A DNA stretch of 64,000 nt, taken from assembly GCA_951406725.2 (NCBI GenBank), contig OX597822.1:92318001-92382000 (forward strand), written 5' to 3'. A model generated the notes under the pieces. That model saw only the letters and a list, made by a program, of their open reading frames with translations. It ran no database searches and had not been told where the DNA came from. This document shows positions 5,231-63,309 of this stretch, one piece after another (within the stretch, counting starts at the first letter, position 1; each line of letters begins with the position of its first letter). The position numbers and the translations under genes were made by a program. Source of the DNA: Octopus vulgaris (lineage: Eukaryota).

Positions 5231-5366
5231 ATTTAATCCATGTTTCTCTGAATTTATTTGAATTCACAAAACATTTTTTTTACTCTAATGTTCCAAATAC
5301 TCCAATTTTACAAAATGAATAACACATTAAAATACCTCCAGACTCAGATTACCGTTTTGTTTTCAG

Positions 5367-5756
5367 ATTCAGTGACAGAGACAGAAGAAGTAGGTGCTTC
5401 GTCGTCGTCGTCAGGTGATTGTGAGCTAGCAGTGGCTAATCTCAGTATCTCCACCAGCAGATGTGGGGACACCGTTGTCACTACAGATAGCCATTCCTCT
5501 TCAGACCTAGCTATAAGCCCCCAGGTGGTGCAGACTTCACCTTTGCCTACCACTTCTTCTTCTTCATATTCCCAAACCACTGAGAGCATGGCTGCTGTAT
5601 CAACGGTGACTGTGCACAGTTTCCATGGTGTTCAGTCATCAAATTATGGTACTCAAGATGTGATTACTGGTCTGCCTTCATTCCCCACAGACAATAATAA
5701 TGCTGTTGCCCTTAATACAGATATTATTTCTTCTTCCAACAATCCCATACCAGTTG
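5367..5756 (+). CDS. PHACTR: PHACTR coding exon (Ser/Thr-rich low-complexity region), phase 1 to 1
   Basis: Acceptor ttttgttttcAG at 5365-5366 and donor GTaagt at 5757. Open frame DSVTETEEVGASSSS...NNPIPV. Phase matches the exon at 15324. Assigned by splice-phase continuity, not by a recognisable domain. Confidence 0.7.
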
Positions 5757-8700
5757 GTAAGTTCTAAAAATACACATAGCTCTATCACTCTCCTTCCCCT
5801 TCTCTTGCTTTTTATAATTTTTTTTTTTTTAAGATATCAAAATTTACTAATTAGTACACCAGAGCATATAGTGAGGTTGTTATGTCTCTTGCCATGGAAT
5901 AAACAACTTAACGTTAAGTAATATGTCAACCAGTTTTCAATCTATTTCTCACTATTAATCTTTACAGTTTTTTTTTTTTTTGCTTGTTTGCTTTTTCTTT
6001 TTCATTTTCTTAGTAAGTAAATAACTTTGAGAACCTTCCATTTCATTACTTTAGAGTACCTACCAAGGGATTTTGCTATTTAAAATGAGGCACACAGCAC
6101 TAATGGAAAGAACAACTGGTCAAAAAAATTCACGAGACTCTAAATTTATTGAAATATTTGATACAAACCAGCTTACAAAAAGAATTACTCCTAACATGTT
6201 GAAAAATAAGCATTTTGATAGCATTTTACCTGACCTTTCACTATTAATTTTTAGTATTTTTATTTGATAATTAGTGCAATATAGTTATTGGTCTCTCTCT
6301 CTCTCACACACACACACGCACACACTCACAGTGATTTTGCAAACTGAGATATGAAGTCAAATATTTCTCATAAGTTCTAAAGTTTGAATAGTAAATCAAT
6401 GTCTTGTGTTGCCTTAAAAGATGAATCTTTAACATGACCTGCTACACCATCTTTAATTGGTATGTAGTTGTTCTTCACCTTCTCTTGAATTTACCATTTA
6501 ATAAATAGGAATGGTAAAGGTGCATAAACTTCATCTTGCCAAACTGTGCCTTGAAGTCTTTAATTATATTCCTTTACATTCTTGGTCCAAACATTTTTTT
6601 CTCATCAGTAATATAAATACCAGTCAAATATTGAGTTGCCATTTTGTACTGGTCAGTGTTAGCTTTACTTCTCATTCTTCAGAAATTGATAAAGTATCAG
6701 TAATAATACATATGTCTATTATACACCCTCTACTACAGATGTCTAGTGTTATCTCAGTGTAAAACATTAACATCTAATTTTTACAATCCTTGTAGCCTCT
6801 TTGATTCTTTGTGTCTATATTTATCATTTTCAATACATCAGCTTAAAGTATTTAGTATACTTAGTGTTAATAGACTATCCATCTAACTCTGAAAAACAAA
6901 ACTATTCATTATTGGAAAATTATGAGCTTCTGAAATGAAGTGGCACTCCTGTAATGAGACAAGTAGATAATTGTATAATGTGTAGCTTATTCTACTGCGC
7001 TTCAGCTTTTAGTATCTGATCATTTTATTTTAATATATCACTTAGCATGGGTTGGCAGAAATGCAGCTCATCATCATCATACTAGACATCTTGATTTTGA
7101 TCTAAGCTCAGTGGTTGTGAGAAGTAGATAGGCCTTGATAAGAAAACCTACTTGGTATAAATGAAAATACTCAATGGATTCAGTCAATCTGACCTTATTT
7201 CTATCACCATCCTAATTGGTTTAAACCATTGTTCTAAACACATATCTTGTTAACCAGGCTACATTATTTGGTTTCTTTAACTCTTAAAATGCATAATAGA
7301 ATCATGTGTTCTTAGCTAGAAATGCATCAGAAATGCAGACACTAGTACAAAATCTAATGGTTCTCTTCACCCTAATATTCTCCTGTCCAAGCTTTCTGCT
7401 AACTTGAAATCTTTGTCATTTCCCTTCTGTTCATCAATTACTAGGCATAAAATCTTTGCCACAGACTAATTTATTATGCTAACAACTAGTTAGAAAACCA
7501 TTCATTAATAAAATTACAATTACAATTTAATTAATTATATCTGCTTACAAGATCTAAAATATTCAGGTGTTCTGAATATTTTAAATTATTTATTAAAAAA
7601 TATTTTAAAATTATATTTTGAGCAAGACAGCTAAAGAAGTTTAGAACAAAGATATTCTACAAAAATAAATTATTACATACTAGTAATAATTTTTCTTCGA
7701 ATGCCTCATTATTATATTAATATCGTCTAAAGAAAATTTTGTAAGAGTAACAATTTAAAAGTGGTATATATTTGTTGCTGTTAACAGTCAATTAACTAAA
7801 TGGATAAATTTTGGGCTTTTGCCTATAGCCACGGATTTATATCCTCTCTTTAGCACTCGCAAAATAATGAATGCCTTTATCAACAAGCAGAGTAGTTATG
7901 AACCAAGTAAGAACAATGTAATAATGGAACACTGATATGTTTTGTTTCTGTTCTTGAATTGAGGCATAAAATTGAAGGATTCCTACCTACTGTAAACAAG
8001 GTGACAATACTATCGCAACATACTTTTGACAGTCTGACTATGGCTTCATTGAAAACAGATTGAGCAAGTTTTAGATAGCTGTAAACTGGATTGCTTCAAA
8101 ATAATGCATGCCTTACTAACAAATTTTGACAAGCATACTAATATACAAAAGATAAACACTAATATATTGTGAAATCAATGTTTTTGTCTACTTCCTTGAT
8201 TTTATAGCATGGCTGACTGATTTTTTTTTAATCTGTATAATATATATATAATATAAATTTAATTTAGTGTTAATAAATTCAGGTGTAAAAAATTTCTACA
8301 GAATATTTCAGAAATGTTTTTAATATGTTAAAAAGTAGTCCATTTCTTCAATGTAAATTTGAATGCCTCAAATTGTACAGAAATTTTATAAAAAGAAATA
8401 TTTATATAAAAACTCTTTTGTCAATCTATTCACTAACTTAGAGAATGTAAGACAAGTAAATAAAATGAGTGATATGGAGCAGGCTATTACACAAGTTTCC
8501 TCTTTCTCAAATATCCAGTAAAAACTTTTAATGGTCTTTCCTTCAGTTGAGAATATATAGAGACCATTTCTATTCCTAAAAATCCAATGGCAATTTTTTA
8601 AGAACACAAAATCAACAGTTTGCAAGAATTTATTCAATATTCCATGGCTTTCAGACTACAAAATCACCACCTCACTATACTGGAATAGTCTATTACACTG

Positions 8701-10002
8701 CCATACAATGTTGACAACCTCTATTCACACAGTGAAGAGTTTCTTTATTCATAGAATCCTTCACTCTACTCTGCGGGGATTTCCCTTTTATCTAAACTTC
8801 TTTTATCTTTCATTTTCTTCTACTCAATTCCTTTCTAATCTCTTTTTCCTATTCTTTTCACATATTTGTCTCCAAACTTCTCCTATGCCATCTTTTCCTT
8901 GCTACTGTCATTACATCAGAGTTGAGGCTCCTTTACCGTTCTCTTTCTCTCTCTCCCCCATCTCTTCTTTGATATATTACTTCCAACATATTGGTACTTT
9001 CAATTGCCAGATAATACTGTACTCATTAAAACCTGCAGTAATTGTCCCTATCTTATCATTTTGGCTATATCTCTAACATGGAATAATAATATCTTCTTCA
9101 CTGGCCCTGGCATTCAACATTCTTTGTACCAATTGTTCTTCAATTTAAATTCAAACTCAATAAGCTTGGTCTGCTATGTCTTCACCTAATAGCTTCAGGC
9201 TTGTTCTTCTTCCCTGTTTCACTTGGCACTTACAAATGCTTTTCTCTTATTTCTTTTCCTCTCCCTTTCTCCTACTCTCTCTCTTTCTCTCTTATCATAA
9301 CTTTCTATTAAAATACCTTAACTAAATATTTATGTACTGTTTGCTAAATATCTAAATATATTTCATATTTCTCTTTAATTTTAGTAGTGCTTTCACCAAA
9401 TATATCAGTTTATCTGAAGCTGTTCAACAAATATTCCTTGTAAACCATGCTTTTATTTTAGCCAAGCTGTATTATTTTCTAATAGATGGCTCTACATGTA
9501 ACCCTCCCACAAAAAAAAAAAAAAAATGAGCAGATTTGTTTTAAAAATATGTCTACAAATATAAATTGATTTATCTTTTCAAATCCCCTTTCCACTCAGA
9601 TTTGCAATGTTGATGTTTTCCACTACAGCTTTATCTATGTCTGTTAACTGATTGCAAATTAATAAATTTTACACTAATATTCATTTAATTGAACAGTCAT
9701 CTGACAATTTGCAGTTTGTTCCCTTCTGTTTCCTTTTCCCAATGGCATTCAGCTGAATCATGAATTATTCATGTAAATTGGATTTCTTTTCAGACTTGTA
9801 TTATTCCTGCTTTTTATTTTTTTTTTTTTTTTTTTTTTTGGTAATTGAATTCTGCATGTCTGCGATATCCGGCTTCCCAATATTTCTGGTTTCTAATCTT
9901 CTCAACACTTCAACTCCTTGGTGTGGTGCCTCTGAAATACTTGTAGTTTTACTCACTCATAAGATATCAAATGTCCGTTTTAATAATAATACATTGTAAG
10001 AG

Positions 10003-10155
10003 TCTGGAACATTATTTACTCCCCATGGATGGACAATAACCACCCCCAAGGACAATTACCCCTGTGGACAACAGATGATGATTTAAGACTTCTTAATATA
10101 TTGAAGAGTGGGTAATTGTCCTAGGCGGTAGTTGTCATCAGGAGGAATTGTCCTA
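10003..10155. mobile_element. Small palindromic MITE-like element with ggacaattacccc subrepeats
   Basis: Left ggacaataaccacccc and ggacaattacccc are mirrored by right gggtaattgtcc, gtagttgtc and ggaattgtcctatgggg. Confidence 0.5.
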
Positions 10156-10424
10156 TGGGGTGTAATTCAAAAGGTACAGCTTTGTCATACACTGTGTCAC
10201 ATTGCTTCTGCTTGAGAATTATGCTAATAGGCCATCTATTTGTAGAATATTCAGCTACTTGCAGGTTAACTCAAAGAGCAGACAATTCAGTTGATTGAAC
10301 AACTGAGTCCTCTTTGTCAGATGATGGAAATATGCATATATATATATATTAAATATTTCCATTGATGGAAACTGAAAAAAAGCTTGTGTGTATTTATATA
10401 TGTATATGTGTGTGTGTGTATGAT

Positions 10425-10725
10425 AGACTCTCCTGTTGTCCTGTCAAAGCTAATGTATGAGCATTCAGCTTTTTCCAAATGACCTGCTCAAATGATTTGT
10501 TTACAGTGATCAAATATTCATACCACACATTAGCTCACTCTCTCCATCAAATTGACATTGTCTGAACAGGTGCACAGTGTCCCATATGTCAGGTGTCGAA
10601 GTGATCACGGAGCAATGTGAGATGAAGTGTTTTGCTCAAGAACACAATGCACCACCCAGTTGAGGAATTGAAATCACAATCACTAGATTGTGAGTGCAAC
10701 ACCCTAATCACTAAATCATGCACTC
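10425..10725 (-). mobile_element. tRNA-derived SINE
   Basis: Near copy at 16990-17275. The reverse complement has a tRNA-like head followed by the tgtgttcttgagcaa...cactt core also seen at 58089. Confidence 0.75.
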
Positions 10726-10729
10726 TCAC

Positions 10730-10770
<41 letters not shown>

Positions 10771-10829
10771 CAAGCACATGCACACATATCTATCTATCTA
10801 TCCATCCATCCATATACAAACATTTAGAT

Positions 10830-11000
10830 CAATAATAATTGGAGCGCATGGTTTTGTAAGTAAATGCCTAACTGTCAGTCTGGATAAGCTTGGATTTTCA
10901 GGAAAAGAAATCAGCCAACTGATTTGCACATTACAAATACAATCTGTAAGTGGAACAATAAAACTGTGCAAGACTTTTCTCAGGTTTAGAATGTGGCGTT
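10830..11000 (+). mobile_element. 3' end fragment of a restriction-like-endonuclease LINE
   Basis: IIIGAHGFVSKCL...LQIQSVSGTIKLCKTFLRF resembles the C-terminus of R2/R4-group ORFs. Confidence 0.45.
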
Positions 11001-11173
11001 GTTTTCACTATCTACATTTCAAAGATGAAGCTTTGCACCTTTGTTAGAAACTAGCTCCTTCTTCAGAGGAAAAATTTAAAATTAAAAACAGAAGAGACAC
11101 ACATATATATACATATATATAGAAATATATATATGAGTATATATATTCGCACACACACATATATATATATTTA

Positions 11174-11224
<51 letters not shown>

Positions 11225-11360
11225 TCGCATACACACTCACGCACATACATACAAGCAAACAATTCACTGTTTCAAATTAGGCATAGCAATATTGATAACT
11301 TGTTAGATTTCAATACACATATGCTTCAGAATAAAGTATTGGTTGGGTACAGAGCATAAC

Positions 11361-11634
11361 ATGAAATTAAATGACAAAGAAACAGGAAATTATGTAATCA
11401 ACTTCATTAACTTGCAACTGTTTCTGTTATAAGATGCAGTGCACTTACACTTGAGTGCTTGTGCATCACCTTATAGCTTCCTTGGAGCTTCAAAAATGAA
11501 GTGCAAGGAAGGATGTTATAAGGTGATGTACAGGCAGTCAGCTCTGAGTGTACTGCATCTTATGGCAGAAATGCTGTTGGTTAATGAAGTTCAGTGCATA
11601 ATTTCCTATTCCTCTTTCATTTGTTTAATTTCAT
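11361..11634 (+). ncRNA. Long intronic RNA hairpin (putative miRNA/hpRNA precursor or ADAR substrate)
   Basis: 11421-11477 pairs with 11515-11571, giving 46 Watson-Crick pairs, 8 G-U pairs, 3 mismatches and no A-C. There is an upper stem and an AAAA loop near 11493-11496, and outer stems extend to 11361/11634. Confidence 0.6.
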
Positions 11635-12448
11635 ATGTACATATATTTGTGTGTGTGTTTGTGTTTCTCTTCAGATTAAAAATATATATATTAAAATACA
11701 ATATTGTTTTTTTTTTTTGTTGTATTTTGTTTAGCCTTATCTAAATAGTTTTTCTATCTGATAGTATTGGTATATCTTTGTTCACGTACACTAATCAAGT
11801 AGTTGATTTCCAGTTTTCCAAGTATATTTACATTTTTGTTTATCTTTAAATCTGTCTATGTGACCATCCCACTGGAGTGCCTGTCCACAAATAGACACTC
11901 CTTCTTTGTTACATTTAATTTACAGGTAAATATTCCTTCAAAAGACATATTTTGCGAAGACTTTTTCTCCTTTTTCATTTTCCTTTTCTTTTTTCTATGT
12001 TAAAATAGCCAAATAATATCTATCTTGTATATTTTATTTTATTTTAAAAGTTGCTATATTTGCTCTGCTATAATAGTTTTCTTAAGAACTCACAAAAAGG
12101 AAAAAAATTGGGTTTCTACCATTTTGTCATGTCTTTTTCTTTTTTTCTTTTCTTTTTTTCTTTTCTCATAAATACACACATGCATACACTTTATTTTTTT
12201 TTCTCTTCTAAATGCACAGACACACTTTATTCACACTAATTGCTTCATTCTAACATATATCTCTTGCTTTTCTTTTTAACAATTTTCTTTTGTCACTAAT
12301 AATATATATTTTTTAATTGTTTGTATTTATTTAATAAATAATAATTTATACATTTGACCATCTGTTATTGTTTACATGCTAGCAACATTAGAATTTTGTA
12401 GATGTTGAAAAACAAATTATTATTTTATCCCTTCATTTTTCAATTGTC

Positions 12449-12500
<52 letters not shown>

Positions 12501-13286
12501 CACACATGTTGGTAAGTAAAAAAAAAAAAAGCACCTATTTTTAATTTTTTACTTTAATCATGTCTTATAGTAGTAGTAGCCGAGTTGGAGATTTAGTGTC
12601 TGTAGTTCTTGTAGATCTGTCTGGAAGAGCATTACAGTCAGTCTGAAGAGAATTGTGAAGGCCAATAGCATTTTTATATTCTCATAAACTGGACAGAGGG
12701 ATGACTGACTGAAGTAATAATTGTAGTTTAGCCCTAGGCTCATATTTTATTGAGTAGACCTGTGATCACAGGACTATCTTATTCACTGTGTCTTAACTAT
12801 TTTTCAGGCAGTAAGTAAGAATAGATTGGAGGAGGTTAACTGTTATTCTCAATAGTTCAAGCAACTAAGCAGAAGCATAGTGGCTTCTTTGATTTAAAGT
12901 GGGACAATTAGTATTTGATTTGTGTTGCTGCGGATTGTAAGAAGAAATGTAGACAGAAAAGAAGTGCCTGATAGATACATATCAGTAGGAAGAACATTAA
13001 TTAGAAATTAGTATTTAACAGGCTGGATCTGGAATGGAGAAAGATTGGCAGGTGATAAATGGAAAGAGTGAATGTTTAAACAAAGGAAGTAACTTTGTCT
13101 CTCTTAGGACAATGGTGTTGCATTGAGAAATCAGGTGCTTCTTGAACTGAATGATGGTTGTGGGTTATAACTGAGCTTCCCTTTAAAAATCTGGTACTTT
13201 ATCAGTCTCTTTTGCTGAACTACTAAGTTACAGGGATGTAAACAGACCAGCTGTCAAGCAGTGGTGGGACACACACACACATACAT

Positions 13287-13332
13287 GAAACTCTGAGTAA
13301 CAGCTTTTATATTTCTGCTGGTTTTAAATAAA

Positions 13333-13366
<34 letters not shown>

Positions 13367-13391
13367 CTGCTGGTTTTAAATAAAGTATATA

Positions 13392-13428
<37 letters not shown>

Positions 13429-13475
13429 TTTATTTAAAACCAGCGGAAATATAAAAGCTATTACTCAGAGTTTCA
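13287..13475. repeat. Inverted pair of the gaaactctgagtaacag...aaataaag element around a (TA)n tract
   Basis: 13287-13333 and 13427-13475 are reverse complements. Same family as 63106-63310. Confidence 0.75.
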
Positions 13476-13499
13476 CGTTCACACTCACACAGAAGAATA

Positions 13500-13941
13500 A
13501 AACACATACACATATACACTTGCAATAAGATTTTAGTATCCGTAAGCAACACTTTCACACACATATACACATATGTGAACACGGACATGCACACACCCAC
13601 ACACACCACCCCGAAATTACAAATCACATTCACACAAACACACACGCATTTATGCACACCTGTACACACACACAATGTGCCCGCACCCCAGTAATAAAAT
13701 AACACACACACACACACACACACATTCAAAAGAAAAAAACACACATACACGCACATTACAACCACAACAAACATTCACAAACATACATACACACAAGCAT
13801 GCACACACACAATGACACACACCTCCCCGACAAATACAAGACACATAAACACACCCACACAAACACTCCTACACGTATACACACACATTGCACTAACAAT
13901 ACAAACAAAACAAATCACTCACAAATGCAACACAGACTTGT

Positions 13942-13980
<39 letters not shown>

Positions 13981-14460
13981 CTACAGAACTACATAAACCA
14001 TGCCCACATATATACACACACACAAACATACTCAATACCAACACACACAAAACACATATACACACACACGCCACCCAGATAAACCTGACACACAGAACCC
14101 CTGATAAATACAACACACACATACACATCCACACACACCCACACACATACACATGCCCCCTCACACACATACGGTTGCTCACACATACACTCACATATAA
14201 CATCCCCACCAACACAAAAAACAAACAAACATACACACACGCACATACAGACGCACATATACACACATGCGCACACACAGCACCATGACAAATACCAATC
14301 ACACACCATGACAAATACATGCGAACAAACACATACACGCACTAGCGCACACACAACACACTAACAAACATTAACCACACACACACACACACACACACAA
14401 ACGTGCACACATATATACACACACCATCCTACCAAATATAAAACACACAGAGACACATTT
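13500..14460. repeat. Degenerate (CA)n-rich low-complexity tract
   Basis: About 1 kb of interrupted acacac repeats. It is the source of spurious THTH/VCVC ORFs. Confidence 0.9.
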
Positions 14461-14561
14461 ACTTTTGTGCCCAATATTTTAATGAACTTGTTAAACTTTT
14501 TTATATTTTCCCAAGATTTTCACTTGTAAACTGTTCTTAACATGTTCTTATTATCAAAGAA

Positions 14562-14615
<54 letters not shown>

Positions 14616-32782: not shown

Positions 32783-34444
32783 GTAAAATATCTACCATAA
32801 TTAGTTGTTTTCTGATGGTATTTAGCCCGTTCACCTGTCATCATAAAAGTCATTGATGACTTTGTGAAATTCAAGTATAGATGGCTTTGTTTCTTGGATG
32901 AAGTTGCCAAATGTAAAATTATGACTTCATTTTGTAAACCAATATTAGCAGTGTTTGTAGAATCTTAATGTATGATCATGGAAGGTGTTTGGATTAATAT
33001 CTTATTGAGAAATCTGTGACTTAAATTGTCGATTCTGTTGAAATCCTTAATGCTATTATTTTCGCATTAACTTCATATACACTGAGCTGCTAAATAAATA
33101 AAGTATAATTGATAGTTCAAACAGGCATGGCTGTGATTATGAAGTTTACTTTGCAACCATGTGATTCCAGGTTCAATTCCACTTTGAGGCACTTTGACAA
33201 GTGTCTTCTACTTGTCTTATGCTTACCAATGCCTTGTAAGAGAATCTAGTTGATAGAAACTCTGTGTGAGTGTGGGTGTGTGTGTGTGTGCATTGGTTTT
33301 ATATCACCATAACTTAAATGTTTGGCAAAAAAAGAACCAACAGAGTAAGTAGCAAACTTATTTAATATAAGTAGTGGAGTCACTGTAATCGATTTAAACC
33401 ATTCAATTCAGTGCTCCAGCATGGCTGCAGTTCAATGACTGACACAAGTTAAGGAATGATAAATAGAATTATTGTACAATAAAATTTATATTTCCTGCTT
33501 TGTTGTAATTCACTGTCTTGAAGTTCATAACTACTACTGTTCACTAAGCTATATGTGTGGCATTTTGTCCTTAATAGTTTTATTGCCTTTTGTTGATTTT
33601 TATCAACAAAATAGTAAGCAGCTTATCTGAAAATCTGACCAGGAGTCATAGCTTTAATCTGTTAATATATTCTCGCTTTCAACTAAGTTGTCTTGCCTAC
33701 ATTTTCTGTTTAGAAACCTTATTCAAACGATCCGTATCTACTCTAGTCTTTATTAATATCTGTTAGTCATTAGTAGTAGTTGTAATACAATCCACCAAAT
33801 AGTGACAGAATTGAGTTCCATTAGTGGCAGTCTGGATTGTGATCACAACCACAGCAAGAGTTTCTGTCAACAATCACAGGACCACAGGTATGACAGCTTA
33901 AATAATATGAACATCTTCAACAGGCTGTTGAAGTTAATATTGCTGTCCACTAGTATATACAGCCTATAGTTCACGTCATCGTTATACTTGAATTGATCAG
34001 TGTGTAGAATGAGGAGAGTGTATGTTTGTAATATAATATTTATATATAAACAATTGATGTTGTGTGTGTGTGTGTGCATGCGTGCATACATACGTGTACG
34101 TACACATCAATTTTTCAGAACCTTTGACAGAGAGCTGTTTGGATTCCAACTGTCTGTTGTGGTATGGTGTCTATGGCTGGATGCCCTTCCTAACGCCAAT
34201 GATAAATTCGTTACTGAAGTCATTGCTGATTTTCACTTAATTTACTTCATCTTTGTACATAGCTCCTACAGCCCTCACATGCCATTTGTCTACACCTGCT
34301 TTCCCTAGTGACTATCAAATGTGCTACTCTGTCAAACACCTCCAAATCAACAAATGCCAGGAATGATGGTCTACTCTTCTACGTGTGTGTACATATATAA
34401 AAGTGTATGTGTGTGTGTATATATATATATATATTTTTTCAAAA

Positions 34445-34648
34445 TGTGACCACGTGTGTACCGTTGGCGATATTTTTTCCTCCGTCTTCACTTCTTTGGA
34501 TCTTTCCTTTTCCTATGTTTCTGACGAAGAGCTCTGCTCAAAACGTTAAACTCTCCTTCTTTCCTTCTTTCTTGAGCGTCCAGTAATACTATACTTGTTC
34601 CACGTCCTCGCGTTGTTGTATTTTCTCTTTGTGTTTTCATGTTTGGAT

Positions 34649-34655
<7 letters not shown>
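34445..34655 (+). mobile_element. Short TA-repeat-associated element carrying a minimal hammerhead ribozyme motif (34517-34551)
   Basis: gttt-CTGACGA-a-gagc-tct-gctc-AAAAC-GTT-aaac. Stem I gttt/aaac, stem II gagc/gctc and palindromic ACGT stem III. GAAA is mutated to AAAA. Flanked by (TA)n on both sides. Confidence 0.65.
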
Positions 34656-34684
<29 letters not shown>

Positions 34685-35689
34685 AATACATGTAAATTTA
34701 CATGCAAATATATGTGTGTACAATTTATACTGTGTGTATAATAATACTTAAGAAATATTGATTTTTTTTAAACGACAGGTTAGTGTTTGTAGGTTCTCTC
34801 AGACCTGGTGCTGCTGATGCAATTAATGTTCAGTTTGAACTTCTACATATTGCAGTAATGCTTTGACAGAGGGATTAGATAAGTTTTTATTAGAGACCAA
34901 GGAATGAAAGATAGTTGGAGAGAGAGAGAGAGAGAAAAAGATATTCCTGTTGGGGAAAATGTGTTTAAAATGTCTATGCATGTATGTTAGCTGCAGTGTC
35001 ACAGATATGTGGGCATTCTTTTTGCTTTATAGGAGGATAGTGAAATAGGTGGGGGTGAGCTAAAATATTTCTTAAAACAAGAAACAGAAGCCTAATTTTG
35101 AGTTACAGTCTTGGTTATTTTCCAGTTTTGAGAAATGTTGAAGCTTGGTTTAAAATTTGGATTAGTCTAAAAAGTTGAAGTAAAACTGGTAGCCCAAAGA
35201 TAGATAATTTCAGTTTTATTCCTTATAGAAACAAAATGGTTTAGTAGGAAAAGGAGAATAAAATGGTTCTTGAAACCAATATTGTGTTCTACCCAGAGAA
35301 TATTTCAAACAAAAGGTTTGATTTATCATCTTTCACAGACCTAAATTATAGAACTCTCAGCATATAGCCATTATTTCAGAGAATATTTTTGGGGTTGACC
35401 ATTGCACATATTTTCTCTCCATGTTGTTCTACCTGCTGGCATTGTTAAAAATCAACAAAAACTTCTTTATCCAAAGTCGTCACACTTCACCTTTGTTTCA
35501 CCTTCATTTACCTGCACCAATTATTCTCTTAATTTCAGGTATCTACTTTTCAAATGGCTTTGAATCCTTGCTTTCAATTCATGTCAGCTTGTGTCTGACG
35601 TTCTAATTTCACTTCACATTACTCTTATTTAGTGAGTAAATAAACAAAAGTTGAAGTTGAAGCTGCTGTGAATTAACATCACCATCTGG

Positions 35690-36315
35690 TTGTGTTTAAT
35701 GCATGGATTGCTGTGACTTATTCTCTCCAGTCAGTCTGGTTAGCCATTGCAACTGGAAGGTCTTCTCGGGTGCATTTGGGGTCCTCGCACTGTTGCTTTG
35801 TGTAGGCTTGATGTGGTCCACCAACATTTGCATACCCATGCTTTGGTTCTCAAAGAAGAACATCGCTGATTTCATCCTTTGCTCTTCTGTAATGTTCAAC
35901 GAATTTTGTTCTTTCTCTGAGGAAGTGATATTTGTGGTAAATTACCCTAGAAAAGCTCTTTTGTAGGGTGTTGTCTCCAGGAGATGTCCAGAGCAGGTCA
36001 AAGCATTCTTGTATAGATTCTGTCAATTTTCATTTCAAGACACTTTGTTAGAGTCCATTATGTATATCTATATAACAGAACTGACTGCACAACCACCTGA
36101 TTTATTTGAAGCTGCCCAGGCCACTTGTGGACAGATCTTCCTTTGTGATTTTACTTCTGAGTTGTGTGAATTTGTCAACATTTTCCAAGGATTTTCCAGA
36201 TGTGGAGTTAATGTTGCCACTCTGGTTGTACATCATATATTCTGTTTTGCCAAAGCCTTACTGCAATATGTAGAAGTTGAAACTGAACATTCATTGCATC
36301 AGCAGCACTAGGTCT
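35690..36315 (-). mobile_element. Decayed RTE-X-like LINE 3' fragment
   Basis: The minus strand reads ALDISWRQHPTKELF..NLPQIS and further degenerate C-terminal motifs, with many stops. Confidence 0.5.
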
Positions 36316-36539
36316 GGGAGAACCTACAAACACTATGGACTCACCTGTCTTTTGAAAAAATCAATTAATTAATTTCTTTATTATTATGATATACACAGTA
36401 TAATGTACACACATATATTTGCATGTATATATTTACACACATGTATTTATATGACTTTTTCTATTCCTGAGCGTTATACTACATCTGTTTGTTCTGTACA
36501 CCACCTATCTTCGTCTTTTGTTTTTTTCGTAAACTCTCC

Positions 36540-36573
<34 letters not shown>

Positions 36574-36649
36574 CACACATGCACATATATATATGTATGT
36601 ACACACATGCACATATATATATATATATGTACACACATGCACAAGAGTA

Positions 36650-37420
36650 GACCTCCATTCCTGGCATTTGTTAATGTGGAGGCGTTTGACAGAGTAGCAC
36701 ATTTGATAGTCACTAGGGAAAGTAGGTGTAGACAAATGGCATGTGAGGGCTGTACGAGCTATGTACAAAGATGAAGTAAATAAAGTATCAGTGACGAATT
36801 TATGATTGGTGTTAGGAAGGGCATCCAGCCATAGAAACCATGCCACAACAGACTGCTCTCTGCTAGCCAGCTCCATGTCAAACTATCCAACCCATGCCAA
36901 CATGGAAACCGGACATTATCCAATAATGGAGATGCTGATGATGTAGAAATTCATCAAGATTTAGACTTCAATCTTCTTTTAGTCATTGACTTCACATAGG
37001 CCACCACAAAGGGGTGTAATGATTTGGTTGTCATAGCTGCATCTTTTGTGGAGTTAGAGAAGAAATTCCATGCATGGAAGCTGAACCTAAAAGCAATTGG
37101 TTTAAGATTTTAGTAAGTAGAAAAAGAGATAAGATCCAGCTCAATGTGCAGGAAAGGAGGAGGTAAAAAAAAAATCATATTCACTGAGACTATTTAAGCT
37201 ATGAGGACACACCAGAGGTGATGTGGAATGCGTGAGCAACAAAGTACAGATGTACTGAAAGAAAAACTGGCATATCAGATGATGTGTGCAGAAGAGAAAA
37301 CTGAGCTAATATGGGCATGTGATGCATATGGATGAGGTAGCTCTATAAAGAAGTGCCAATCACTAAATATGAAGAGGCATGAGATTCTGGACATCGTATG
37401 GTGAGGATAATGATAACTCA
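36650..37420 (+). mobile_element. Highly decayed RTE fragments with an embedded RTE-tail-like repeat
   Basis: LAFVNVEAFDRV and gagttagagaagaaattccatgcatggaag resemble the RTE copies at 684 and 61256. aggaagggcatccagccatagaaacc at about 36815. Confidence 0.6.
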
Positions 37421-54674: not shown

Positions 54675-55896
54675 GTAAGTACTTGGTTTTACACTTCATT
54701 ATACCCTTTGCTCATTTTTAAAAGTTCTATATCATCTTTTGTTTTGTGTGATTTGGTTGGACTGTTTCACCATTAACATTACCTTTATCTTCATATTTTA
54801 TATGCAGTCTTCCCATGGTGACCATCCTTTCTGATTAGAAGTTGATTGTGATTGTATTTCTTGTTAGCATATCTGAAAGTTGTAAAAAGTCCTGTCTATT
54901 TAGTCAGTGATATCGATGTCTGGCATGAGATTGGATTGATTCCTGTACAGTCTGATTAATTAAACAGTGCTATCATACTTTGGTCATGTTATCACATTAT
55001 TTGTTTTTACCTCAACAGATAGGGTCTCCTCCAGATTTTTAAGGTGTTTAGGCTGGAGTACAAGAATCCACTCCCACGACCCCAAATGAGATGCCAGTCT
55101 GTTGCAAGGTTGAAACCCTGCTACCCCAAGTGCCACTGGTACTTGTTTTCAGCTGAATGTGCTGGAACAATGTGAAATAAAGTACCTTATTGAGAAAACG
55201 ATACTTTTTTCACTATAATCATGTGCCAAAAACAAACTTATAGTGTTTCCAGACTTCTTAAGATGTAGCTCCATTAACTGTTGTTGTTTCTCTTGTTGTT
55301 GAAGTAGTTGTTTCTACAACTCCTGTTGCTGATTTTGCAAATGTATTATGGAAGCTAATAAGTCTTCCATCATTAACAACTTTGTATCACAAAAATTTGT
55401 TAACTGACCTGCGTGAGCTTCGAATCCTTATCGCCAATTGTTATAATGATACTTGTTTACATTATAATCATGTAGTAACAATAAACATATAATGAAGCAG
55501 GCTAACAACAACATAACAATCCAATAAACTCTCCACAAACTACCAAAATAACACCTTACAACTTCCTGTGATTAATACCTACTTAATAGTCAAACTGTGT
55601 GCCACCCCTTCCACAGAGTTCTCCAAGAATATTATTAAATTTATTGTAAAGCTCTAAATTTAGAGAAGATTCAGTTTTATACCCTACACCAATGTATCAA
55701 AACTAAGCCCCTTACAGATAATGGATCACAATATAACCATGTCTGAAATGCTTGCAATAGCTGTAATTTCATTTGTAGGGCTGGGTTTTGTATCAGGACA
55801 CCAGATATGTTGGATTTTCTCCATTTTGATGGAGATTTTTCCCTTTTTTTTCCCCCAGAGCCTTGCAAATAGTTTTTTTACCTACCTTCTCTGCCC

Positions 55897-56198
55897 CAAA
55901 CTGATTTAGGCCAATTTTGGGGGCACTAGGCACTTAAAAACCAATGGGAGATGCCTTTATGGTAGGAAAAAACAAATATGAATTGAAATGAAAGTATGTG
56001 ATTTAAGGGAGATTTAGCTACTGTTTCTAGCACATCCTTTGATGACCTGGTAATGAACAAGAAATAGCAGCTAAATCTCCCTTAAATTACATACCTTTTC
56101 ACCTCAAAAATATTTTCATAATTTTTTTTCCTACTCTAACAGCTTCACCCAGTGATTTTGAAGCACCTAGTGCCAAAAAATAGGCCTAAATCAGTCTG
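55897..56198. repeat. Imperfect inverted repeat (fold-back) in the intron after the RPEL3 exon
   Basis: ctgatttaggcc...ggcactagg pairs with cctagtgcc...ggcctaaatcag, and tttaagggagatttagct pairs with agctaaatctcccttaaa. Confidence 0.8.
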
Positions 56199-56718
56199 GA
56201 GGATGGGAGGGGGGAAATAAAATCACAAAACTTCCCAAATTTTTCCTCGTAAGACTTACCTCCCATCGTTTCCAATGCCATAATGAGAAAAAAAATTCAA
56301 CTTATGTTGTCTAACTACTTAAACTGCATGCTCTCTACTACAATCAGGTTTTACTCACTGACTCACTTCTTCATATCAACATTTGACTTTTGTTCTTTGT
56401 GTGTCTTTATATTTGAAACAGTACTTGGCCTGGTGGTTAGAGATTTAGACTCTTCTTCATAACATTGTGGTTTTGATTCCTAGTTTGGGAGGAACAGTGT
56501 GTAACACTTTATTTCATGTTGCTCCAGTTTACTCGGCTGGCAAAATGAATTTAAGGCTAACAGAGCGTCATGGCTAGTGCAGCAGTGGCACATTCAAGAA
56601 TGAAGAGAGTTGTTGTGTCCAGTTGTGGGCATTCAGTGGTAAACTACTATGGCCTACACTTAGTTGTGGAGTTCTCTATCCTATCTTTATCCTCTTTTTT
56701 TTTTTCTATCTCTTAAAG

Positions 56719-56883: not shown

Positions 56884-57476
56884 TTTCCATTTAAGCATCA
56901 AAAAAATTTCCATTTCATTCACATGAATGAAATATTTTTGAACAATCCTCAGAAAGATTCTTTCTCCACCACCACTCACAACATTTGTCCAAAATTATGT
57001 TTTATATTGGTTCACTACATGCATAGTGTTTTGTCTATACTGTGATTCCAAGCAGTCAGTCTCACAGAACCATGTCCACCTTGTTCTCTGCATTTGTCTA
57101 AAACTTTGTCGTTTCTTACCCCTTCATCCTACAACACATTTATTTAGTCTTTTCAACACTTTACAACAAGACAGTTCTTCATCAACACGGACAGCTATGG
57201 CCTCAATTCACCAGTATTTCTAAAGAGCGTCCTTGTTGCCATGGTGATGCTGTGGTTGAAAGAACAAGGGGAAAGAAGTGATAAAGTTTTAGACAAACGC
57301 AGAGATCAAGGTGAACATGGTTCTGTGTGACTGGCTTCTTAGAATCATAATATAAAGACACAGCACTACATATATAGTGAGCCAATATAAAACATAATTT
57401 TGAATAAATGGGGATTGTTCAAAAATATTTCATTCATGTAAATGAAATAGAAATTTTCTTGATGTTTAAATGAAAA
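56884..57476. repeat. About 600-bp imperfect fold-back filling most of the 989-nt intron before the RPEL4 exon
   Basis: acatgaatgaaatatttttgaacaatcc / ggattgttcaaaaatatttcattcatgt, aaaattatgttttatattgg / ccaatataaaacataatttt, and cacagaaccatgt / acatggttctgtg. Confidence 0.88.
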
Positions 57477-62665: not shown

Positions 62666-63105
62666 ACCTATGATCTGAACCTCGTGTTGCAGTACATGTG
62701 TGAATTTCTTCCTTTCCACCTCACCTTTTGCCTAGTATGCTTGTCACCTAGATGCCCTTTTGGCTAAAAGGGCATCTCTCCCTACTACTCACTACCTTCC
62801 CCAGATTTTCCAAGCCTGTCACTTATCCTTTACTGCCCTGTCAACCATATCATTCCACCACCATGTTATCTTGCTCAGATTCACATCTGTTCTATAGCTT
62901 TAACAAGATTATTTTGTAGAAATTGTCAGTTTTCATCTCAGATATGAGTATCTACCTCTCTCTCTACAGTTCACATGCATCATTTATGGTTTCTCTAAAC
63001 CTAAAAGATCCTGGAATTGGGAACTACAAGATCTTTTAGTTTCCATATTATCTACTGTTTCTGTGCCTATATGTTTCTGTCACTATATGTGTGTGTATAT
63101 ATATA

Positions 63106-63309
63106 CTTTATTTAAAGCAGCAGAAAATTCAACAAAATCTGTTACTCTAAGTTTCTCGTTGCCGTTCATCGGATGAACGGCAACAAGAAACTCAGAGTAA
63201 CAGATTTTGTTGAATTTTCTGCTGCTTTAAATAAAGCATATTACTCTACCACTGGTATTTGAGTACTCTTTTTTTCCACCTTGTTTCACATTTATGTGTT
63301 TACTCCGGT

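Follow-up and report, generated by a model that had tools for sequence, protein, structure and literature searches.

Results

A long hairpin in an intron of PHACTR

The window, by which we mean the whole 64-kb stretch of octopus DNA analyzed here, includes exons and introns of PHACTR, among them an RPEL exon with 100% identity to Octopus proteins. Using tblastn, we placed the hairpin in a PHACTR intron between the flanking exons at 5366-5755 and 15323-15493, with the + strand as the PHACTR sense strand; the upstream exon lies 5.6 kb and the downstream exon 3.7 kb away. Pfam searches with three PHACTR exon pieces returned nothing useful. Pairing positions 11421-11477 with 11571-11515, we counted 46 Watson-Crick pairs, 8 G-U, 2 C-C, 1 G-G and no A-C. 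Folding of both strands gave predicted energies of -146 kcal/mol (z -17.4) for the + strand and -121.1 kcal/mol (z -15.7) for the - strand, both far outside a background of 200 shuffles. The stem is about 125 bp long, and the predicted duplex of -146 kcal/mol lies on the transcribed strand. The window holds no second copy of the hairpin, and Rfam gave no match at the gathering score in the window. In all these respects (pairing, fold, intronic location, single copy in the window and lack of an Rfam match) we confirmed the preliminary description of the locus. We found no published work on this octopus PHACTR hairpin, and PHACTR does not occur in three supplement files of PMC9699675.

The hairpin is real, yet it represents a single, worn member of a repeat dispersed in the octopus genome, whose parts can be delimited at the locus (Table 1).

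Table 1. Features of the hairpin copy, its host intron and other elements of the window
Feature	Coordinates	Strand	Basis
Host PHACTR intron	5756..15322	+	tblastn of octopus PHACTR proteins, splice sites
TA/CA/TG microsatellite just beyond the tail, likely target context	11099..11253	.	sequence
Unpaired one-sided tail, the element's 3' end on the - strand	11270..11360 (start approximate)	-	nhmmer, consensus 7-92 at 11277-11359
Left arm, terminal repeat with hammerhead-like motif	11361..11506	-	17/151 aligned bases off subfamily A consensus
Decayed type I hammerhead-like motif	11405..11490	-	sequence read against family consensus
Fold-back junction	11504..11513	.	sequence, self-alignment, arms versus consensus
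Right arm, inverted shorter copy without tail	11510..11634	+	16/125 aligned bases off subfamily A consensus
TA/TG simple repeat, right end	11635..11668	.	sequence; family right ends
A>G sites, likely A-to-I editing	11518, 11540, 11570, 11584, 11600, 11608	+	probable RNA contigs versus DNA
Other fold-backs or inverted pairs	45293-45911, 56884-57476, 55873-56222, 53833-54033, 48317-48562		
Other fold-backs or inverted pairs, continued	63101-63241, 13283-13478, 34152-36853, 17427-20447		
Broken RT + GIY-YIG (Penelope-like) remnants	46736-47944, 18042-18383	+	
Nearly pure (TA)n, about 1 kb, adjoining the 45293-45911 fold-back	44254-45303		

In the left arm, the hammerhead-like motif has CCAAGGA as its first core box (11479-11485), GAAA at 11421-11424 and the triplet GCA in place of GUA, and it is predicted from these letters to be dead. 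The right arm holds only the 3' half of the motif, on the + strand, with GAAA at 11568-11571, and both motifs are broken in this copy. At the junction, three bases (11504-11506) fit both arms, a microhomology that is followed by a short insertion. No target-site duplication was discernible by eye, both flanks being simple repeats. The hairpin had been said to lack transposon-like termini, a statement that misleads in spirit: at about 11270-11360 there is a tail specific to the family, and the hairpin has thousands of relatives in the genome.

A repeat family with one-sided tails and inverted arms

Searching the octopus genome with its own hairpin, we obtained 1,751 candidate places, with 84 matches in the 40 that were scored. 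One family 32-mer has 87 exact occurrences, its reversed control none; the exact 32-mer is present in 4 of 136 sampled arms, giving roughly 3,000 arms genome-wide, an estimate that rests on a sample biased to good copies. The relatives, which number in the thousands, are 70-85% identical. This is the high copy number that the preliminary description had itself set against its reading of the hairpin as a selected RNA structure.

The first 159 loci fetched yielded 129 distinct loci with an arm. In the family unit, a 93-nt tail adjoins an arm of about 157 nt, beyond which lie 450 nt or more of non-coding, microsatellite-rich sequence; inverted copies bear an extra reverse copy of the arm, which ends where the tail begins. 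Among 34 inverted pairs, the tail is one-sided in 26, present on both sides in 1 and absent in 7, the inner arm ends vary between consensus positions 81 and 158, and the spacers between arms reach 661 nt; a spacer of 1.6 kb occurs at locus L100. Loci picked solely by the exact 32-mer (n = 30) comprised 9 inverted pairs and 21 single arms. A simple repeat lies within 45 nt of 57 of 80 family tail ends, against a background of 16%. Arms in inverted pairs diverge from the consensus by 16% on average. Both arms belong to the same subfamily in 25 of 26 classifiable pairs, and non-consensus bases are shared at 176/1,050 positions (16.8%) within copies compared with 2,921/37,459 (7.8%) between copies, indicating a common source for both arms of a copy. 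We also observed a full-length 5S rRNA copy (106 bits; L058:1111-1229) between the two arms of one family member.

A hammerhead-like motif in the arm

Oriented with the tail at the 3' side, the consensus motif comprises a 4-bp helix I, the box CUGAUGA or CCGAUGA, an extra A and a long helix II closed by G-C, continuing with a second extra A, GAAA, a palindromic helix III and GUA. A stricter hammerhead descriptor without the second extra A missed the consensus motif; an adjusted descriptor matched it, and found the complete motif in 3 of 67 copies. Shuffled sequences contained the motif in 0 of 20,000 cases under the strict form and in 2 under the relaxed form, a lenient comparison in that the descriptor was tuned on this motif. 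Position N7, which is free in the hammerhead core, is among the most variable columns. No Rfam hammerhead family matched up to E = 5 in 12 loci, where Rfam returned only microsatellite-driven miRNA matches, weak palindrome matches and one 5S rRNA copy. Nor did the hammerhead stems covary above shuffles in 57 copies within the family. Neither result is a surprise for copies in decay that belong to two close subfamilies.

A gapped pattern built on the two core boxes gave 1,638 exact genome matches, and its control gave 0. A sister family (L202-L261) has the same cores, a palindromic helix III and an extra A on both sides of helix II. Among the matches listed for this set, helix II differs in sequence and length and is still paired, and helix I reads GTCT/AGAC in 26 of 75 instances versus AGCT/AGCT in 12 of 75. 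Inverted and direct pairs are both present in the sister set, and no linked ORF was found there. Judged by sequence, the sister family appears to offer better support for the hammerhead-like motif than either the shuffles or the covariation. We found no published assay of a hammerhead in which helix II is flanked by an extra A at both sides.

G-U pairs as traces of decay

The lack of A-C pairs opposite eight G-U pairs had been read as a sign that the hairpin is selected as RNA on the PHACTR sense strand. For the hairpin as a whole we could not confirm this skew: the complete stem has 13 G-U to 5 A-C pairs (two-sided p = 0.096; 9:3 by self-BLAST), with every A-C pair located in the outer stem, outside the counted window (11358/11632, 11377/11614, 11380/11611, 11383/11608 and 11417/11574). 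Comparing 125 aligned positions with the subfamily consensus, we found 13 G-U, 5 A-C and 10 other mismatches, the G-U pairs having arisen by 8 C>T and 5 A>G changes and the A-C pairs by 4 G>A and 1 T>C. Since every G-U is a decayed Watson-Crick pair, the G-U pairs weaken a once-perfect stem and do not stabilize it. The G-U of the upper stem (gcttca/tgaagt), also put forward as a stabilizing feature, lies in a stem that the family consensus shares and is thus inherited.

The family as a whole has no such bias. In 25 other oriented copies we counted 203 G-U to 176 A-C (p = 0.18), and the spread over the 34 inverted copies is binomial (overdispersion p = 0.43), with no net skew. On the + strand, the other inverted repeats in the window gave a pooled G-U to A-C ratio of 76:81, and the 56884-57476 fold-back, which had served as the original control, gave 15:19. 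The chance of 1 in 256 attached to the skew ignored the choice of window; when labels are shuffled within this copy, the probability is 0.017 in one direction and 0.036 in either, and an 8:0 window turns up in at least one of 34 copies in 0.40 of shuffles. Only this copy among the 34 has a 57-column window of 8:0 or more, the next best reaching 5. The simplest account of the G-U excess is likely chance together with the choice of window. Selection on RNA structure therefore lost its footing, given the high copy number, the origin of the G-U pairs as lost ancestral pairs and the lack of skew in the family.

Probable A-to-I editing of the PHACTR transcript

By contrast, the proposal that the hairpin is an ADAR substrate on the PHACTR sense strand gained support: in low-depth contigs of two probable RNA runs, the changes listed for the right arm are A>G only, and the DNA lacks them. 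These runs, X9 and X10, are guessed to be RNA (no run holding this stretch is RNA on record) and come from two studies with two species labels; they and the DNA runs represent different individuals, their depth is 2.4-6.1, and all runs used are assembled contigs. The X9 contig (11440-11669, depth 2.4) has 5 differences, of which four are listed A>G changes and one is unlisted. In X10, three contigs (depth 2.6-6.1) have A>G at the same four sites (11540, 11570, 11584 and 11600) and also at 11518 and 11608, and two alternative contigs over 11554-11638 carry 6 and 3 differences; two of the X9 and X10 contigs have one unlisted difference each. Other listed changes in the arm (11614 and 11616 in X9) agree with the family consensus, and the contigs that carry them are deep and paralogous. 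As for DNA, the contig of X2, which bears the species label of X9, extends over 11468-11990, and none of its 3 differences falls in the hairpin; that of X7 covers 11453-11664 with 1 difference.

Across the family, the frequency of G is 0-5.5% at five of the six A>G sites, so that paralogs are no explanation there; at 11608 it is 50%, and this change is ambiguous. Five of the six sites are predicted to be paired. None of the six has a 5' G, against a low background in which only 5 of 31 right-arm adenosines do. We conclude that PHACTR pre-mRNA is likely A-to-I edited at the hairpin, probably by ADAR. Editing shows duplex formation, not function, as intronic repeats are its usual target: in the excerpted parts of three studies (PMC9989829, PMC9068888, PMC9699675), repeat-derived intronic hairpins are the known main A-to-I targets in animals, cephalopods included. 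Set beside the ADAR-edited intronic inverted repeats in the same excerpts (Zhang et al. 2023; Albertin et al. 2022; Zolotarov et al. 2022), the PHACTR hairpin shares a repeat-derived intramolecular duplex and A>G on the transcribed strand; its six changed sites lack a 5' G, as do most right-arm adenosines. It differs in that its duplex comes from one insertion, theirs from two nearby insertions, and in that its editing is seen in low-depth contigs.

Other elements in the window and the genome

The PHACTR introns of the window contain about ten further fold-backs or inverted pairs. For the Penelope-like remnants of the window, whose GIY-YIG at 47564-47941 is a weak Pfam match, the genome holds 2,241 candidate relatives, among them a younger family whose frames reach 1,151 aa. 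A further family with RT and GIY-YIG (L194:1-2350, L262-L291) is very young, its copies being 97-100% identical with 17,898 candidates; its GIY-YIG match is weak, and the hammerhead-like motif of its 3' repeat has U for A6. A third fold-back family with hammerhead-like boxes (L324:1200-4780; L106:2380-3220) lies about 2 kb ahead of a 377-aa Penelope-type RT frame on the same strand. The frames at 18981-20126 look like what we take to be a broken Tc1/mariner transposase, and a 317-aa open frame at 50719-51672 resembles the end of a LINE reverse transcriptase.

Discussion

A probable Penelope-like stump

The one-sided tail, the variable fold-back point, the microsatellite flanks and the hammerhead-like motif point to the layout of a stump of a Penelope-like element (PLE), and on this sequence evidence there is a high likelihood that the family works like one. 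Our preferred reading, to which we give a probability of roughly 80%, is that the hairpin is a decayed repeat copy, likely a PLE 3' stump with its own inverted end, and that ADAR likely edits its RNA, the hairpin being a passenger in the PHACTR transcript. Reverse transcription would start from the 3' end of the element into a TA-rich site and halt after about 240 nt; the strand might then fold back at a 3-nt microhomology and recopy the same sequence minus the tail, leaving a near-perfect palindrome. Among 125 aligned pairs, 28 are mismatched (13 as G-U when read on the + strand), and neutral point mutation would account for these. Transcribed as part of PHACTR pre-mRNA, the predicted stem would have its adenosines deaminated by ADAR.

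Much of this layout has precedents in the excerpts of the PLE literature that we consulted. Craig et al. 2021 (PMC8557442) describe PLE insertions whose 5' end carries a 5'-truncated copy in inverted orientation, with a tail of 30-40 bp that is often at one end, hammerheads in the pLTRs and (TA)n targets, and Arkhipova et al. 2013 (PMC3846280) report inverted pLTRs joined head to head at palindromic junctions and suggest self-priming. Frangieh et al. (PMC11167929) connect the tail with two start sites of the RT and report that cleavage by the hammerhead is not needed in vitro, and Cervera and De la Pena 2014 (PMC4209133) report minimal hammerheads, with opposite-strand motif pairs 100-700 bp apart. 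Like the endonuclease-bearing PLE insertions of these excerpts, the octopus copies have an adjacent, head-to-head inverted shorter copy, a tail on one side, a junction that is palindromic or a microhomology, flanks of (TA)n and, close to the 3' end, a hammerhead-like motif; unlike them, they have a tail of 93 nt instead of 30-40, and no linked ORF. In the same sources, minimal type I PLE hammerheads share with the octopus motif a 4-bp helix I, a large helix II, an extra nucleotide between A9 and G10.1, a G10.1-C11.1 pair and a palindromic helix III/loop 3. The octopus family differs from them in an extra A between C11.1 and G12, in having C often for U4 and in a helix II of about 20 bp, and the window copy in that both motifs are broken. 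The Hydra-1_Obim hammerhead, as listed, differs from the octopus family motif, and the latter was not found in the excerpted supplement of PMC8557442. Closer to hand, the young element with RT and GIY-YIG in this genome has a minimal hammerhead-like motif, about 100 nt and a (TA)n end in 29 of 30 loci.

In the family loci we found no linked frame for an RT or an endonuclease. The 42 loci with a PLE ORF held no arm except L200 (the same as L153), where a truncated PLE abuts the tail in what looks like a nested insertion. Twenty extended stretches gave two PLE matches, of which the first has the wrong orientation and the second falls outside the element. Extension upstream by about 450 nt met no ORF before the sequence became microsatellite-rich, and a further step entered another repeat.

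Alternative readings

A fold-back of MITE type, that is, a non-autonomous DNA transposon whose resemblance to a hammerhead is incidental, would also be short, non-coding and of high copy number, with long inverted arms and TA-rich flanks, and would fit with the failure to find an RT or an Rfam hammerhead. We consider it improbable, because the ends are asymmetric (the tail is one-sided), the symmetry axis varies among copies, 21 of 30 pattern-picked copies are single-armed, and the motif stands out against 20,000 shuffles and is found again, with other stems, in the sister family. Non-LTR retrozymes (Li et al., bioRxiv 10.64898/2026.07.22.740005, in excerpt) are likewise non-coding repeats with a type I hammerhead and a relation to PLE pLTRs, but those are tandem units with intact motifs, and the hairpin, a single inverted pair with dead motifs, was rejected as one of them. 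The idea that the locus is a miRNA or hairpin-siRNA precursor is the least credible of all. A miRNA precursor is expected to be a unique, short (about 60-nt) hairpin locus, and Drosha-type precursors are far shorter than about 125 bp; this stem has that length, its locus is multicopy, with thousands of 70-85% identical relatives, and no Rfam miRNA family matches at threshold. In its favor are the long, stable stem on the transcribed strand and, according to the portions of PMC9699675 consulted, the many lineage-specific miRNA families in octopus.

Two further readings grant the repeat origin and give the G-U excess a cause. One holds that the stump was co-opted: selection would keep the duplex in the PHACTR-sense RNA, tolerating G-U and purging A-C in the core stem, with the edited element affecting splicing, nuclear retention or nearby recoding. 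The 8:0 window is unique among 34 copies (P 0.017-0.036 by label shuffle), A>G occurs at shared sites in probable RNA from two studies, and the orthologous center in organism E is 97% identical against an overall divergence of about 8% (our own estimate, from a sampled-word share of 0.07). The organism E contig covers the hairpin center (11453-11563) with 3 substitutions and 1 gap in 112 nt and spans the junction of this copy, so that the insertion is older than that split; the match may leave room for constraint, but a good match was also the reason why this piece came to light. In organism E the flank is for the most part without coverage, and missing flank coverage in organisms E and F is no evidence. 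Against co-option, the whole stem gives only p = 0.096 and tolerates 10 transversion mismatches as well as indels, no pair was restored by a double change (bar one base common to both arms), and such a window has a 40% chance of arising among 34 copies. Moreover, a strand energy gap of at least 22 kcal/mol occurs in 3 of 25 other close hairpins, and the exons are 3.7 and 5.6 kb away, with complementarity between the flanking exons and the hairpin never above 10 nt. A domesticated stump, with a core stem kept pairable on the PHACTR strand and with a role as an intronic switch of PHACTR processing that is conserved and edited reproducibly, is thus unlikely; if true, it would be one case of Penelope fold-backs giving octopus genes ready-made ADAR landing pads. 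The other reading takes the excess as a mutational scar, left by a transcription-linked strand asymmetry or by edited hairpin RNA rewritten into DNA, and seems very unlikely to us. On the + strand this copy does have 13 changes of A>G or C>T type versus 5 of T>C or G>A type. However, in the other window repeats the changes are symmetric (A>G 25 to T>C 20 and C>T 64 to G>A 64 over 2,885 polarized sites), and we rejected transcription-linked asymmetry on this basis. An ADAR scar in the DNA was likewise rejected: only 5 of the 13 G-U pairs originated by A>G, A>G versus T>C is not overdispersed in the 34 copies (p = 0.79), and retrotransposition from the tail-bearing strand would produce T>C on the + strand, the opposite direction.

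Implications

The hairpin is thus a decayed, likely Penelope-derived fold-back that is likely edited, an ordinary repeat that probably serves no function in PHACTR, and editing of such hairpins is ordinary. As a single locus it has little weight, edited repeat-derived intronic hairpins being already known, and it carries a caution: when a window is picked by hand from a decayed palindrome, an excess of G-U pairs in it does not demonstrate selection. With about ten other fold-backs in PHACTR and about a third of the family copies inverted, stumps of this kind could supply much of the intronic dsRNA in octopus.
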